Shown piece by piece: positions 7,826 through 44,111 of a stretch of 64,000 nt of DNA (positions are counted from its first letter, which is position 1; every line of letters begins with the position of its first letter). The DNA is taken from the NCBI GenBank assembly GCA_963762565.1, contig CAVXLD010000003.1:832001-896000 (forward strand), written 5' to 3'. A program made the position numbers and the translations under genes. Below the pieces are notes generated by a model. The model saw only the letters and a list, made by a program, of their open reading frames with translations, was not told the DNA's origin and made no database searches. The DNA is from an uncultured Verrucomicrobiae bacterium (GTDB taxonomy: Bacteria; Verrucomicrobiota; Verrucomicrobiia; Chthoniobacterales; JAFAMB01).

Positions 7826-8467
7826 TCAAGCACCTCGGTTACTTGCCAGGATATATGCGCGGCGAGTCTGAGCTTCGATTTCGGGATAAGGATCTCGTTC
7901 GACAATTTTTTCCACCTCGAATCCGGCGGATCGCAGGGCGTCAGTTACGTCCTCGGTGCGAAAGAAATGAAAATCGATCGATACGGCCTGCCCCCATAAT
8001 TCTACGAAATGGACGACCTTGTCTCCAACATGGAACGCTAGCAACAAAATGCCGTCTGGTTGAAGAACTCGTCTCATCTCGGAAAAGATAAGCAGGTGCT
8101 CACCAGAAGGAACGTGAATGATAGAATAGAACGCGACGATACCCGCCCAAGTCGCATCGGGAGTGTCCAGCGCAAACATGTTGCCCTGCTCAAACTCTAT
8201 GCCCGGATTCAACCGGCGGGCTTGGTCGACCATGCCGGGCGCTAAATCGATACCGCAAACCTGAACTCCTTGTTCCCAGAGATAACGAGCGACATGTCCT
8301 GGGCCGCAACCCAGATCGCACACGGCACCCTTTACTCGTGCCGCAAATTCATTCAGCTGTTGCTGATCGAGCGGCTTATGCTGCAATTCCTCGTAAATTC
8401 GACGAACGTACTCGCCGGCCAAACGATCATAGCTGTCCCGTGTGTTCTTCGTTATTTCGTTGTGCAT
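7826..8467 (-). CDS. Class I SAM-dependent methyltransferase
   Basis: VCDLGCGPG motif I; GIDLA; RVLQPDG. Confidence 0.9.
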   Translation of the reverse strand: MHNEITKNTRDSYDRLAGEYVRRIYEELQHKPLDQQQLNEFAARVKGAVCDLGCGPGHVARYLWEQGVQVCGIDLAPGMVDQARRLNPGIEFEQGNMFALDTPDATWAGIVAFYSIIHVPSGEHLLIFSEMRRVLQPDGILLLAFHVGDKVVHFVELWGQAVSIDFHFFRTEDVTDALRSAGFEVEKIVERDPYPEIEAQTRRAYILASNRGA

Positions 8468-8716
8468 AGGAGTTGATCCGATGTCGGGGATAGGGTCGTG
8501 GTTTGAGAAATTTGAATCGCCAGGATAAAATCATATAAACATATCTTGATATTACAATATGTATATTGGCTAATGACGGCGATATCCTTCCAGATGGGGT
8601 GCGCACACGAAACGGAAATTTAAGTACGGTAAGGAGCTCTCTCCCTCGTGGACTGGAGGGCGAATGCACTCACCAGGAACATGGTCGAACTACCGGGACG
8701 TCTGGCCGGGATTTTT

Positions 8717-10148
8717 TCATGCCGCAATTGGAGCAAGTTGATAGCCCATCTGGCGAGCGGAGGCCTTGAGGCGTTTTAGTTGGCGCTGCTCATTGAGTTT
8801 TTCTTCGTAAGCAAAAACGCTGTGATCAAAGGGCCATTGTCGGGAGATCAGGGTCCAAATGATTCTGGCCAGTTGATGAGCCATGGCCACGATGGCCTTG
8901 GGAGCTCCAAGTCTGGTGCGTAAACGTCGGTATTTTTGGCCTAAGTAGCTTTTGTCATGGTGTAAAGAGGAAGCTGCCATGCGCAAGGCATATCGGACTC
9001 GGTTCTGACTGCGGCGAGTACGGCGACGCAATACTTTGCCAGCGCTGGTTTCATTGTCCGGGCACAGACAGAGCCAGGAGGCAAAATGGTGCTCGGTTTT
9101 GAAGGCACTCAAAATCGTTGCCTAACTCTGTCATGAGGGTCAATCCGGTCAGAACGCTAACGCCAGGTATGGCCGTGAGATCCACGCTAAAGAAGCGCTC
9201 CAGCTCCTCTTTCCAGGGGCCCTGAGGTTGATTCTTGCTAGTTTTCTTGCGCACCTTGGGTGGCTTTTGGACTGGCATTTTACTATCCGGCTCGGTGCCG
9301 AGTAATTCGGGCCTTAAGCGCATCGTTTTAGCCGCTTGGATCAACCGAGTGGCTGCTTCCAACTTACGGGCGTAAGCTAAAAGCTCCTGATCACATTGGT
9401 GGATCTGGTGCTGGAGCTGGTGGTAGCTCTCCCAAGCCTTTTGTAGTACGAAGAGATGCTCTTTTCGCCAGTCGCCTTCCAAGGCTTTGGCGATGGTCGA
9501 TTCGGGTGCCTTGATGCGTTTATCGCGCAATTTGGCTAATTGTACTGGATCTCTTTGGCCCTTTAAAATGGCTTCAATGATGGCTTGGCCAGTCAGTCCG
9601 GTTAGGTCGTCAATGACGTAATGAAGCTTGATATTCATTTGATCCAGAGCTGCCTGCATATGCTGGATGTACTGCCCTGCCCTAGTGATGAGCTCTTGGC
9701 GATAGCGCCAAATCGAGCGAGCGGCGCAAACGGCTTGAGCCGGACGAAACGAGCCTCGGAGCAAACCGACGCTGAGCAGATACTGTAACCATTGGCAATC
9801 CCGCACATCGCTTTTGCGACTCGGAACGTTTTTGACATGCCGTGCATTGACCAGGCAGACCTTGATCTTGGCATCCTCCAATAACTGATAAAGGGGGATC
9901 CAGTATACTCCTGTGGCTTCCATGGCCACGGTACGCACTCCGCATTGAACCAACCACTGTACCAGCTCGAGCAAGTCTTTGGTGAAGGCTTCAAACTTGC
10001 GCACTGAGTTTTGCGCTCGCTGCGGGGGAACCGCCACCCAGATCTCGGTAGGTGACAGATCAATGCCGCCGGCATCCGGATTAGGTTCGTGAATAGCTTT
10101 ACTGCCTTCGGACTTGGTTTTTGGCTTTGCTCCTTTATTCTTTTTCAT
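8717..10148 (-). pseudogene. IS110 recombinase (DEDD RuvC + Tnp20 domains), ~476 aa, with a single-base frameshift
   Basis: GIDLS, AMEATGVYW and KSDVRD motifs; C-terminal FASWLCLCPDNETSAG in another frame; extra base in the A4 run at 9111-9114. Confidence 0.93.
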
Positions 10149-10158
10149 TGTTGGAATG

Positions 10159-10348
10159 CCAACGAAGGAGGCTTGGCTCAGACGGCGAAAGATTGAGACA
10201 CTCTCACCAACGGGGTCTTGGGGAACACTTCGGTGCTCCCCCGCCACCAATGAATTGATCGCAGCGTCTGATTCCATGCTCGTGATCGGGCTTAGCTACT
10301 ACTAAGCTCCACTGTGGCTTCGGATTACTTGCCAAGCCTCCTCGTTGG
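10159..10348 (-). ncRNA. Putative IS110 bridge RNA
   Basis: 18-bp closing stem 10159-10177/10331-10348; internal hairpins 10220-10241 and 10290-10307; guide-like matches to both element junctions. Transcribed strand is not certain. Confidence 0.65.
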
Positions 10349-10600
10349 TGCGCTTGCCTTACCAGGCCAAAAGCGCGGCTGCACCACAAATCGAATGTTC
10401 CTTCTGGAGAATTGCACCCGCGCAGCGGGTTGAAGGTGCTCGTGAGGAACGCTCAACCTCCGTCACCAAGCAGTTGGTCTTCCAGTACCGGTTTTGCCGT
10501 AAAACGAGCTGTAATCGAGTTCTGGAGCGTTTTCTTTTAGTCGAATGATCCGTGGAAGGTCTAAGCGTACGATTTTTTCCGTTTCGTGTGCGGACCCCTT

Positions 10601-10662
10601 TTACTGACTACTGATCACTGTCTTACTGAATACCGCTTACTGCTCACTGCTTACTGCTTACT
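10601..10662. repeat. Degenerate TTACTGC heptamer array
   Basis: ttactga ctactga tcactgt cttactg... tandem units downstream of ppc. Confidence 0.75.
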
Positions 10663-10709
10663 CCCGTGGCCCCATCGATCGGCTAGTACGTCCCCATTTT
10701 ACGCCACGC

Positions 10710-13433
10710 CTACCCCGTGGTCCTTAGCCCGCTAGCGATCGCATTTATCGAGACCATGACCTCCGCGAATAGGCGATCCCCGTCTGCATTCGCGCCCGCA
10801 GCTATCGCTTGCCGCCAGGTTCGAAGCAGGCCGACCTGTTGCACATGAAGAGCCCGAAGACCATCCGCACGGATCTGAAGAGTCTTAGTAAAGCGGGGCC
10901 GGCGATCGGCCGAAGCGCCGCCTAGCACCTCAGAAAGCAGGTTATAGGTCAAATCAAATTCTTCTTTAATTAAAGTATAAACATGTTTAATGCCCTCATC
11001 ATCAGGACATAACGATGCATACATTTCCATGAGAGATGCTGATGCACTGCAAATATTGGTCTCCGCATTTGTCAGCACAAACCGTAAAAAAGACGAGCTT
11101 CTCCCTAGCTCCAACAGCAGTTTCCGCTTGCTCACACCCTGTTCAAGCGCTTGTAACGCTGTCCCGATTCCAAACCAACCAGGGAGGTAGTACCGCGATT
11201 GCGTCCAGCTGAAGACCCAAGGAATAGCGCGCAGATCGGCTAGCGTGTGTTGCCCCGTTCGCCGGCTTGGGCGTGAGCCAATGCTGCTCAGTTCCAACGC
11301 GTCAATCGGGGTCGCACTCCGGAAAAAGTCGATAAACTTCGGATGATTCAGCAGGTCGCGATAGGCGTTCCGGCTCACCTCCGAGAGTTCGGAGGCGATC
11401 TCGCCGGTTCGATCCAAAGGCTCCGCTTGGTTCTTTTGTCGCAGGGTTATCCCGCTGACACCAGCCAGCAGAATCTCGAGGTTGTAGGCTGCTGTGATCC
11501 GGTTCGCGTATTTCTGCGCAATGGTCTCGCCTTGTTCGGTTAAACGGACGTCGCCTCTGATGGTTTTGTGCGGGAGCGCTTCCAGGAACCGGTGGGTGGG
11601 GCCTGCACCTCGGCTGATCGTGCCGCCGCGCCCGTGGAAATAGCGGACTTGAATCCCGCAATGATCTGCCACTTTGGTGATCTCTTTCTGAGCACAGTGC
11701 AGCGCCCATTGGCTGGTGAAAATCCCGGAGTCTTTATTGCTGTCGCTATAGCCCAGCATGATCTGCTGCACCGGATATTCGCTGCCCCGAATCTCAGCTT
11801 GCAGGTCCACACTTCGCCGGACGAACGGATGCTGCAGATATTCTGTCACGATGGCAGGAGCGGCCTCCAGATCTTCAATCGTTTCGAACAGCGGAACGAC
11901 ATGGATCTCGGACGCCGGCCCGTCGGGGGTTTCGCGCCAGAGACCGACCTCGCGAACGAAAAGATAGACCACAAAAAGATCCGCGACCCCTCGGGTCATG
12001 CTGACGATCAGTGAACCAATGCCGCGTAGCCCAAACCGGTCCCGATACTCTTTGAGTACGCGATAACAACTCAGGACGGCGTCTGCCTCCGGTCCAATAG
12101 ACACGTCGGGCGCCAGGAAAGGTCGACGCGAATTCAACTCGGCCAGGAGCAGGGGAAGCCGTTCCTGTTGTGTGTGTTCGGCATACGGTTTCGGCAGGAC
12201 GATGCCGGCCGCCGCTAACAGCTGCGCAATCGCTTGATCATGAAACTGGCTGTTTTGCCGGATATCCAAAACCGCGCCATGAAACCCGAAAACGTCCACA
12301 ATCCGGATGACCGGCCAAACCTCGGTGCGGGCGATACGGGTCGCGCCGACCGCATCTAAGGCTGTGCTCAGCAAAAACAGGTCATTTCTAAGCTCGTTGG
12401 TGGAGCGATAACCTTGATCCTGAAGCGTTTGCTGAACTTTTTTCTGAATTAAAAATGCGAACTGGCGCCACGGTTCTTCGCGATACAGCACGCGCTCAAT
12501 CCCGATCGAAGTTTCTTTTGTAAGCCGTTCGATGCCTTCAACTAGAGTAGGGGGAGCTACTTGATCGTTGCCGGACAGAGTCAATTGTTCCACCACCCGG
12601 TTCATCGCGCTGATCAAGGTCGCTAGCGCCGCCTCGCGCAGTTCGAAAAATGTCTCCCGGGTAACTTGGGCTGTCACCAGCGGATGCCCGTCGCGGTCAC
12701 CGCCAACCCAGGTACCGAACCGGATCCGGGGAAAATGGTCCGGCGAATTTAACGCCTCCAGACTAAACCCCGCTTCTGACCAGGATTGCCGCAGGCGAAG
12801 ATCCACGTCCCGAAGGACGATGGGGAAAACATCCCGCAAATAATGCAACACATTCCGGCGTTCCTCGGCCACGATTGGCTTCGTCCGATGAACCTCTCCG
12901 GTACGCCAAAGACGTTCCAGGGTGACCTTGATTTCATCCCGAATCGCCACCTGTTCGTGCGGGGTGTACATCTGGTTTTCCCGCTGAACCAGAAGATAAT
13001 AGAGGGCCCGGTGCTGATCCAAGACCGCGAGCCGTTTGGCCTCGGTCGGGTGAGCAGTCAGCACCGGTTCAACCCGGGTCGATGCCAACTGAGCGGCAAT
13101 GGCGGATTCGCTGATCCCGGCTTCCTTTAAGCGCTCTAATTGATCCGCCCAAAGGCCCGGCTCGCTGGCTAAACCTAAATCCGACTCGCGCGACCGCCGT
13201 ACCTGCGCGGCTACATTCTCCTCAACCATATTCAGAAGCTGAAACGCGATGGAATAGGTTTGAGAAAGCCGCGGGTTCGGTTCCGACGAAACCTTAACCT
13301 GGCTGATCCATGGCAACGACTGCGCCAGCTCGATTTCGCCGAGTTCCTCGAGCACCTCGCGAAAGCAGTGCATCAAGAAGGAGAGGTCGTCGTAAATTTT
13401 CTCGAACCCTTTTGAAAGATAATCCGGTTTCAT
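10710..13433 (-). CDS. ppc: Phosphoenolpyruvate carboxylase
   Basis: VLTAHPT, WVGGDRDG, QIMLGYSDSNKD, FHGRGG, LRAIPWVFSW and C-terminal GLRTTG motifs. Confidence 0.97.
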   Translation of the reverse strand: MKPDYLSKGFEKIYDDLSFLMHCFREVLEELGEIELAQSLPWISQVKVSSEPNPRLSQTYSIAFQLLNMVEENVAAQVRRSRESDLGLASEPGLWADQLERLKEAGISESAIAAQLASTRVEPVLTAHPTEAKRLAVLDQHRALYYLLVQRENQMYTPHEQVAIRDEIKVTLERLWRTGEVHRTKPIVAEERRNVLHYLRDVFPIVLRDVDLRLRQSWSEAGFSLEALNSPDHFPRIRFGTWVGGDRDGHPLVTAQVTRETFFELREAALATLISAMNRVVEQLTLSGNDQVAPPTLVEGIERLTKETSIGIERVLYREEPWRQFAFLIQKKVQQTLQDQGYRSTNELRNDLFLLSTALDAVGATRIARTEVWPVIRIVDVFGFHGAVLDIRQNSQFHDQAIAQLLAAAGIVLPKPYAEHTQQERLPLLLAELNSRRPFLAPDVSIGPEADAVLSCYRVLKEYRDRFGLRGIGSLIVSMTRGVADLFVVYLFVREVGLWRETPDGPASEIHVVPLFETIEDLEAAPAIVTEYLQHPFVRRSVDLQAEIRGSEYPVQQIMLGYSDSNKDSGIFTSQWALHCAQKEITKVADHCGIQVRYFHGRGGTISRGAGPTHRFLEALPHKTIRGDVRLTEQGETIAQKYANRITAAYNLEILLAGVSGITLRQKNQAEPLDRTGEIASELSEVSRNAYRDLLNHPKFIDFFRSATPIDALELSSIGSRPSRRTGQHTLADLRAIPWVFSWTQSRYYLPGWFGIGTALQALEQGVSKRKLLLELGRSSSFLRFVLTNAETNICSASASLMEMYASLCPDDEGIKHVYTLIKEEFDLTYNLLSEVLGGASADRRPRFTKTLQIRADGLRALHVQQVGLLRTWRQAIAAGANADGDRLFAEVMVSINAIASGLRTTG

Positions 13434-30720: not shown

Positions 30721-30770
30721 GCCTTGTGAGGAACATCGCGAATGCCGATCAATCGTGTTGGATGGAAGGG

Positions 30771-43421: not shown

Positions 43422-44111
43422 GTGACTGAAAGCTCAGAGCAGACGGCGGCGCAAGTGCTCGTGATTGATGTTGGCGGGCACAACATAAAGGTTCTTGCTA
43501 CGGGGAAAACTGAATCCCGGAAGCTGGCGTCCGGTCCCAAATTCACGGCCGCACAGATGGTGCACGGAGTGAAGGAGATCACCCGGGACTGGAAGTACGA
43601 CGTGGTCACGATCGGGTTCCCCGCACCGGTGCGTCAGAATCAACCGGTGGAAGAGCCGTTCAATCTCGGGCGTGGCTGGGTTGGATTTGATTACAAAGGT
43701 GCATTCGGACACCCGGTCAAAATGATCAATGACGCCGCCATGCAGGCCTTAGGCTGCTATCAAGGCGGCAAGATGTTGTTCCTTGGACTCGGCACTGGGC
43801 TCGGGTCGAGCATGGTCGTAGAAGGAATTGTGGTGCCAACCGAGCTTTGCCGGCTCCCTTATAAGAGAATGACATTTGAAGACTACGTCGGCACCCGTGG
43901 CTTGGAACGCCTGGGTAAAAAGAAATGGCGCCGTTGTGTAGAAGATGTGGTCGCCCGATTGGTCGCGGCACTCGAACCGGAAGATGTCGCCCTGGGAGGA
44001 GGCAACGTGAAATACCTGAAGGACGTTCCTCCCGGCTGCAGGATCATTGATAACGATAACGCCTTTGCCGGCGGCTTCCGCCTCTGGGATACGCCTGGCA
44101 GGTTCGGGTGA
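43422..44111 (+). CDS. ROK family protein (polyphosphate glucokinase-like)
   Basis: IDVGG, GFPAPV, INDAAMQA, LGLGTGLG and LGGGN motifs. Confidence 0.88.
   Translation: MTESSEQTAAQVLVIDVGGHNIKVLATGKTESRKLASGPKFTAAQMVHGVKEITRDWKYDVVTIGFPAPVRQNQPVEEPFNLGRGWVGFDYKGAFGHPVKMINDAAMQALGCYQGGKMLFLGLGTGLGSSMVVEGIVVPTELCRLPYKRMTFEDYVGTRGLERLGKKKWRRCVEDVVARLVAALEPEDVALGGGNVKYLKDVPPGCRIIDNDNAFAGGFRLWDTPGRFG

Follow-up and report, generated by a model that had tools for sequence, protein, structure and literature searches.

Bridge RNAs and seekRNAs have been established since 2024, and bridge recombinases are under development as programmable DNA-insertion tools; to our knowledge, IS621 and a few IS1111 members are the source of nearly all that is known of their mechanism. 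Here we describe an IS110-family element in a 64,000-nucleotide stretch of an uncultured Verrucomicrobiae bacterium (contig CAVXLD010000003.1, positions 832,001 to 896,000 of the forward strand; the window, by which we mean this whole stretch, numbered from its first letter). The left end of the element very probably encodes an IS110 bridge RNA of ∼190 nt, running from 10348 to 10159 on the minus strand, which would guide insertion.

The IS621 bridge RNA was described by Durrant et al. 2024 (PMC11208160) and Hiraizumi et al. 2024 (PMC11208158). As given in the supplement of PMC11208160, the IS621 element starts CT-TGTAT..., within a donor that reads ...ACAGTAT-CT-TGTAT.... In its target loop the 5′ strand, AUCGGGC-CU, agrees in sense with the left target and core. 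Reverse-complementing the right junction, made up of the last two element bases, the CT and the right target, gives the 3′ strand, UGCGU-AG-AU (PMC11208160). The IS621 promoter is described as forming only in the circle. The other described type is the IS1111-type seekRNA or bridge RNA, represented by ISEc11, ISPa11 and ISKpn4 (Siddiquee et al. 2024, PMC11187229). In the seekRNAs of IS1111 types the top-strand complement is placed 5′ and the bottom-strand match 3′, an order that is reversed in ISEc21, of the IS110 type (PMC11187229).

Relatives of the window recombinase were abundant: a protein search returned thousands, with a top identity of 89%. A scan of one genome per species yielded 602 relatives, and 80 loci were retained; motif counts used 81 sources. 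Only one retained locus, L001, could be aligned with the window as DNA; it is in a Chthoniobacterales metagenome-assembled genome (MAG), and its protein is 75% identical to that of the window. The remaining retained loci share merely 44–62% protein identity, yet their architecture is common. Loci were placed by regular-expression anchors, and alignment and consensus folding used MAFFT and RNAalifold. Thirteen of the 81 sources had no target-loop motif and were left out of guide statistics; 62 of the other 68 were usable, six being dropped for upstream DNA that was too short or a donor motif that was not found. Loci with at most one mismatch at both junctions form a 'good' set of 46. As a foreign control, guides of other elements were tested against each locus's junctions.

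Nucleotide homology with L001 sets the element ends. On the gene strand it starts at AG|CACC (10440) and ends at ...GAG(TG) near 8669, just where an earlier sequence-only reading of the window had proposed them; the target GAATGCA-CT-CGTGA and donor GAAGGTG-CT-CACCA given in that reading follow from these boundaries. What it overlooked is that CT lies on the strand opposite the gene, the reverse of IS621. On the plus strand, the empty site would read ...GAATGCA-CT-CGTGAGGAAC... and the circle junction ...GAAGGTG-CT-CACCAGGAAC.... We found no further copy or fragment of the element anywhere in the 64-kb window. Its parts are as follows.

8669..10440, minus strand: whole IS110-family element, ∼1.77 kb, core dinucleotide at both ends included, delimited by nucleotide homology with L001
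10439..10440, minus strand: upstream (left-end) core, AG on the gene strand and CT on the plus strand; AG is found at both junctions in the window and relatives
8669..8670, minus strand: downstream (right-end) core dinucleotide; AG at the junctions here and in relatives
10441..10445, minus strand: host half-site TCACG, the five bases adjoining the core, equal to RNA 10285→10281; L001 has CTGAA at both places
10149..10438, minus strand: left non-coding end, 290 nt past the core, with the predicted bridge RNA inside; 81% identical to L001 over 288 nt
10417..10429, minus strand: G+C-rich hairpin close to where the left end begins; a hairpin is at the same place in every family aligned
8717..10148, minus strand: DEDD/serine recombinase gene, frameshifted by one base at a T run (9111–9114); intact homologues are uninterrupted
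8671..8716, minus strand: short right end (46 nt), with a GTTCCT repeat at 8675–8680 and the donor half-site (T)GGTG at 8671–8675

The gene belongs to the IS110 recombinase family. The open reading frame (ORF) 10148→9051 matched PF01548 (DEDD_Tnp_IS110) with an E-value of 7.9e-20, and the ORF 9112→8717 matched PF02371 with 6.2e-9. The model NF033542, 'IS110 family RNA-guided transposase', has a cut-off of 140 bits and scored 178.7 for the first window ORF and 260.8 for the intact homologue P0003. Residues 2–355 of P0003 align to 10142→9081 and residues 345–475 to 9112→8720, in a different frame. The catalytic-residue motifs GID, MEATG, SDVRDC and ETSA are present across the two frames, as judged by eye from an IS621 alignment and invariant columns. 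Among solved structures the sole match was the IS621 transposase (E-value 3.3e-6). The Durrant tree table contains seven of the relatives found by motif, six DCQWLQ rows and one further CQWLQ row, and none of the six listed rows carries an ISfinder name or group. The frameshift at 9111–9114 may be a true inactivating mutation or a homopolymer sequencing error. Because the gene is frameshifted, the window copy is probably unable to move by itself.

The left end, 292 nt with the core, has a strong fold, at −91.6 kcal/mol against a shuffle mean of −65.1 (z = −5.73), and none of 200 shuffles was equally stable. In the minimum free energy (MFE) fold, the stem arms that the earlier reading had drawn do pair; within them lie two stem-loops that both contain an internal loop and an inner hairpin. 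Of the two, the target loop precedes the donor loop, and the guides occupy the 3′ strands of the internal loops. In RNA order the parts are these.

10331..10348, minus strand: closing 18-bp helix, 5′ arm, paired in the MFE fold
10273..10324, minus strand: target-binding stem-loop in the 33-sequence consensus, with basal stem UCCG/UGGA, internal loop and inner hairpin
10277..10285, minus strand: target guide UCACG-AG-CA on the 3′ strand of loop 1; five flank bases, core and two handshake bases
10178..10271, minus strand: donor-binding stem-loop, its helices 3–5 paired at 90–96%
10203..10209, minus strand: donor guide UGGUG-AG on the 3′ strand of loop 2; last five element bases and core
10159..10177, minus strand: closing helix, 3′ arm, paired in the MFE fold

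This fold is kept among the relatives by compensatory change. We aligned 33 of 38 distinct RNA cores, omitting the near-duplicates L011, L037, L039, L069 and L072, and RNAalifold gave 30 consensus pairs in five helices, with compensatory changes at 17 of the 30. Helices 1 and 2, in the target stem-loop, were 98.8% and 97.6% paired, and in helices 3–5 compensatory change was seen in 14 of 20 pairs. Altogether 95.5% of cells were paired, compared with 30–43% when partners were slid by 1–3 columns; the covariation score was 0.43, compared with 0.05–0.10 after sliding, and the observed values were reached in none of 500 shuffles. The RNA regions of L001 and the window share 89% identity. Their left-end differences are clustered in the guides and one hairpin, and one inner hairpin has been swapped wholesale with its pairing kept.

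The guides covary with the junctions. Read 10285→10277, the target guide consists of the five upstream host bases, the AG core and the first two element bases. The earlier reading had picked out TGCTCGTGA at 10277–10285 and 10437–10445, and CTCACCA at 10203–10209 and 8669–8675; the strings are there, and the roles it gave the loops, the former reading the target and the latter the donor, were upheld when homologues were compared as it had suggested. From window to L001 the target guide changes from UCACG to CUGAA and the upstream flank from TCACG to CTGAA, so that all five bases changed jointly. The donor guide changes from GGU to CAG and the right end from GGT to CAG, three joint changes out of three.

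Over the wider family, the motif CCCG-N(1-3)-N5-AG-NN-UGG was found in 68 of 81 sources, 108–188 nt ahead of the start codon. An element's own N5-AG-NN 9-mer recurred 100–200 nt upstream without mismatch in 35 of 62 loci and with one mismatch in another 19, for a total of 54; foreign 9-mers did so within one mismatch in only 22 of 1851 trials (1 exact, 21 with one mismatch). There were 39 distinct target 9-mers, and the upstream copy always precedes the conserved hairpin that marks the start of the left end. When one element had several copies in the same genome, the left flank from −5 to −1 was 97% identical over 18 pairs, and the right flanks of one element's copies were unrelated in three genomes. 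For the donor, the motif C-N-CG-N(1-2)-U-N4-AG was matched exactly at the right end (GTTCCT-N4-AG) in 48 of 62 loci; foreign 7-mers matched in 4 of 354 trials. In the target guide, the two additional bases, which had been likened to handshake pairing, behave as a handshake: the NN after AG equals the first two left-end bases in 28 of 34 distinct elements, where shuffling gave a mean of 7.7 and a maximum of 16 in 2000 trials. About 16 bases in all are clearly guided.

We noted two regularities in the sites themselves. Ten elements (L014, L025, L049, L058, L061, L063, L065 and L072–L074), from different Acidobacteriaceae genomes, have one conserved host repeat, ...TTTGTCA-TCCCG-AG|CG(N)AGCG..., as their left flank; it resembles the REP-type (repetitive extragenic palindromic) targets known for other IS110 members. 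In L007, L034, L035, L039 and others, T(T/C)AGG-AG is a frequent half-site sequence for both target and donor and resembles a ribosome-binding site. After insertion, the right end of most elements leaves AGGAG directly ahead of the downstream host DNA.

Taken from the window alone, the guide matches could be coincidences beside an ordinary structured 5′ untranslated region. When 10149–10425 was shuffled 2000 times with dinucleotides preserved, the 7-mer of the downstream junction was matched 967 times, the 9-mer of the upstream junction 70 times and both together 34 times; the window matches are marginal and only suggestive, and the earlier reading had itself cautioned that they are short. The two guide matches are placed far beyond chance by the comparative evidence from relatives: both guides changed with their junctions in L001, and the count of 54 of 62 loci stands against 22 of 1851 in the foreign control. 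The chance reading is already refuted by these results, and we regard it as very improbable. Another proposal is that 10149–10277 is an N-terminal extension of the recombinase, in an ORF from the ATG at 10277 that gives 408 aa. A frame is indeed open across 10149–10277, and gene callers annotated proteins of 516–521 aa with a 'MESDAAINSLVA...' extension in 11 of 16 homologues (another, of 507 aa, starts differently). But the extensions annotated in different homologues are the same nucleotides read in different frames (RRLSQASFVG in one, SPSEPSLLRW in another), substitutions preserve base pairs and not codons, and most homologues begin at an MK(K/H)xK methionine. We give an extension practically no credence, and on these reading frames the left-end RNA region is non-coding.

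More weight, if still little, goes to the proposal that the matches are repeats acting as DNA: the recombinase could bind internal copies of the end and the flank, or these copies could undergo DNA–DNA pairing, and the fold could be no more than a 5′ leader controlling translation of the recombinase. Transcription and RNA binding of the left-end region rest on analogy with other systems. The target guide, the donor guide and the 5′ strand of the donor loop are all in gene-strand sense and could equally be called direct DNA repeats, and the 3′ arm of the closing helix, which ends 10 nt ahead of the start codon, would suit a leader. However, one repeat partner lies outside the element and varies among elements while still tracking the internal segment, which is how a guide behaves and not how a protein-binding repeat does. 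The guides are also positioned precisely within the internal loops of a fold maintained by compensatory changes, and RNA guidance has been shown experimentally for the IS110 gene family (PMC11208160, PMC11208158, PMC11187229). We consider DNA-level repeats improbable and a bridge RNA the far better reading.

From the IS621 and seekRNA work, we infer that the RNA is made, that the recombinase binds it and that it guides strand exchange. In a bridge RNA of this layout, the 3′ strand of loop 1 would pair with the antisense strand of the five host bases at the left end and of the AG core, and after exchange would also pair with the first two element bases, making the handshake. The 3′ strand of loop 2 would pair likewise with the last five bases of the right end and the core. 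The RNA-bound recombinase, with its DEDD and serine domains, would join the circle junction ...GTTCCTGGTG-AG-CACCTTC... and the target ...GTTCCTCACG-AG-TGCATTC..., and strand exchange would then occur at the core.

Several results weigh against a bridge RNA of this kind, beginning with the loops, where a clear guide is present on only one strand of each. The opposite strands, and a left-end segment to which we return below, are these.

10312..10320, minus strand: 5′ strand of the target loop, AAGCCACAG, a weak candidate guide for the downstream flank
10250..10258, minus strand: 5′ strand of the donor loop, UCAAUUCAU, not complementary to the core-adjacent donor
10409..10414, minus strand: left-end segment CAATTC, matching the donor-loop 5′ strand in the same orientation; CAATTC occurs twice in the window, TAATTC twice in L001

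Agreement between the 5′ strand of the target loop and the downstream flank is weak. The earlier reading had matched a third segment, minus-strand CGAAGCCAC at 10314–10322, to CGAATGCAC at 8661–8669 at 7 of 9 positions; the segment is contained in AAGCCACAG plus the preceding stem bases CG (10321–10322), and the match stands, in the IS621 register, where 5 of 7 bases in the AAGCCACAG strand fit the downstream flank and one core base matches as well. As a guide for the family it is weak. In that register at least 5 of 7 bases matched in six of 46 insertions (0.8 expected), the window and L001 among them, with a mean of about 2.6 of 7. When the target-loop 5′ strand was aligned locally, in either orientation, to each flank and each end of the element, no signal emerged; a weak one came from the fixed IS621 register alone. 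A repeat of AAGCCACAG at 9911–9919 (minus strand, at the MEATG codons) was treated as chance: it is exact in the window only, has two mismatches at the same place in L001, and in the other 31 relatives has one to three mismatches at unrelated places. For the donor loop, the 5′ strand reached at most 37% identity to the core-adjacent donor in every register. The earlier reading had failed to find a convincing fourth, left donor guide, and a core-adjacent donor guide is in fact absent from the whole family. The two bases following the donor guide both matched the downstream flank at no more than chance level (4 of 46 loci).

Other points on the same side concern the copy and its RNA region. The recombinase gene of the window copy is broken. 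Transfer of the IS621 mechanism is less safe because the core polarity is inverted and the protein is distant. An Rfam search of 8000–11000 at E-values up to 10 gave four small nucleolar RNA-like chance matches only, none of them in the RNA region. A consensus scan of the left end for promoters and terminators found nothing; no sigma-70-like promoter was seen in 10149–10445, although host promoters may differ from that consensus.

The 5′ strand of the donor loop does resemble another part of the element, with which it covaries: the left-end segment just past the terminal hairpin. The local score was 5.03 for an element's own pair and 4.15 for foreign pairs, and a score of at least 6 was reached by 30% of own pairs compared with 8% of foreign pairs. 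Giving the loop strand first and the segment second, the window has CAATTC/CAATTC, L001 TAATTC/TAATTC, L075 CGAGAC/CGAGAC and L016 TCATGTCAG/TCATGGCAG.

The ends are linked by a covarying subterminal inverted repeat of 6–7 bp, which in the window is accompanied by a copy in the host flank.

10397..10403, minus strand: left subterminal inverted repeat AAGGAAC, containing the exact reverse complement of the right-end hexamer
10445..10450, minus strand: host-flank GTTCCT imitating the element's own right end, with flank positions −10 to −6 matching at 5/5

The exact reverse complement of the right-end hexamer was found 30–40 nt past the core in 45 of 46 loci, compared with 1 of 230 for foreign hexamers, and the hexamer came in six variants (GTTCCT, GTTCAT, GTTTCT, GGTCCT, GTTATT and GCTTAT). 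In the window, the flank GTTCCT-CACG-AG can be set against the right end GTTCCT-GGTG-AG. Across the family, flank positions −10 to −6 matched the element's own right end at a mean of 2.48 of 5, compared with 1.0–1.1 in two controls.

Some relatives are placed at one another's ends. On the Nostoc sp. C052 plasmid NZ_CP040275.1 (L082:1-3708), related elements form a tail-to-head array. One element has a GTTTCT-TAGG-AG right end as its upstream flank, to which its own target guide corresponds. Directly after the right end of this element comes the next left end, whose guide, UUGAA-AG, matches that right end, so that every target guide in the array fits the right end of the preceding element. At L069:2690-5932, two copies of one element lie in direct tandem, arranged like a donor junction. 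A 38% identical relative on the Citrobacter freundii plasmid NZ_OW967265.1 (L081:800-2700) has the same layout, with end repeats AGAAAC/GTTTCT; both of its guides end in ...AA and not ...AG, and its core may be AA/TT. This relative is apparently inserted in another IS-related reading frame, adjoining an IS66 transposase gene.

We tentatively raise the possibility, which we think rather less likely than otherwise, that the clade of ∼475-aa recombinases has a bridge-RNA logic unlike both described types. Guides would be on 3′ strands only, with ∼7 bases per site; a GTTCC motif 6–10 bases from the target core would add specificity; the 5′ strand of the donor loop would read the left-end segment ∼25 nt inside, beyond the conserved hairpin; the covarying repeat would tie the ends together; and the right ends of relatives would be natural insertion sites, as the Nostoc array illustrates. 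Under such a logic, one loop could hold both integrated ends, for example for excision.

For annotation of the window the outcome is ordinary: a single, probably inactive IS110 copy lies between a phosphoenolpyruvate carboxylase gene (ppc, 10710–13433) and a methyltransferase gene (7826–8467), both on the same strand as the element. Host DNA on the two sides of the element contains a 17-base inverted match, 8600–8618 with 10576–10592 (self-BLAST E-value 0.029), and the element may lie within a larger host palindrome whose arms would be ∼190 nt apart in the empty site. Elsewhere in the window, minus-strand 30723–30734 (GTTCCTCACAAG) shares 11 of 12 bases with GTTCCTCACGAG, the target that the element occupies. 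A rough chance expectation is ∼0.3 per window, and the match may mark a near-cognate site left unoccupied or be a coincidence. A third TGCTCGTGA copy is found at 43456–43464, lacking the GGAAC that follows the true junction copy; the chance expectation for TGCTCGTGA copies is ∼0.5 in 64 kb on both strands.

Like IS621 as described in the papers cited above, the window clade encodes its RNA in a long left end that precedes a DEDD/serine recombinase gene, with two stem-loops that have internal loops, target before donor, and a CT/AG core at both ends without target duplication. The 3′ strand reads five bases plus ...AG, like the right target and right donor guides (RTG and RDG) of IS621 with its handshake, and in the target loop adds two handshake bases that match the donor side. 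Unlike IS621, the 3′ target strand of the window clade has the same sense as the left junction, with CT opposite the gene and RNA strand, and the 8–9-nt 5′-strand guides of IS621 (left target and left donor guides, LTG and LDG) have no clear counterpart. A long-range helix encloses both stem-loops, and there is the covarying 6–7-bp subterminal repeat. The protein is also longer, at ∼475 aa compared with 326–328 aa, and is related to that of IS621 only at an E-value of 3.3e-6.

Like the IS1111 types, the clade has subterminal inverted repeats and places the segment matching the bottom strand 3′ in the RNA, opposite to ISEc21 and IS621. Unlike them, it has its non-coding region upstream of the gene and a right end of 46 nt; theirs is downstream, with exceptions such as ISMtsp17, which has an upstream region (PMC11187229). 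IS1111 repeats are 11–13 bp, with terminal extensions of 7 bp and 3 bp (PMC11187229), and their placement differs from that of the window-clade repeats of 6–7 bp, which lie ∼33 nt from the left end and ∼6 nt from the right.

A preprint survey (10.64898/2026.10.21.760802) built 86 covariance models and reports 32,190 bridge RNAs, many with non-IS621 folds that covary with target and donor, and programmable nucleotides totaling 12 to 40. The ∼16 clearly guided bases of the window clade would lie toward the bottom of this range. The parts of the preprint covered here give no account of the clade, of inverted polarity or of one-sided guides, though its supplements may model the clade, and the combination of upstream RNA, IS1111-type polarity, short displaced repeats and one-strand guides was not found in the literature searched. 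The window RNA is very probably a genuine bridge RNA of a probably inactive IS110 copy, a variant and not a new kind. Its clade ranges from soil Acidobacteriota and Verrucomicrobiota MAGs to plasmids of Nostoc, Burkholderia-group bacteria and Citrobacter; it keeps the two-loop RNA and differs in its reversed site polarity, its apparent reliance on one short guide per site, and its covarying end repeats with a possible distal donor contact. If confirmed, these differences would indicate to what extent the IS621 geometry can be dispensed with, and could account for tandem, tail-to-head IS110 arrays.

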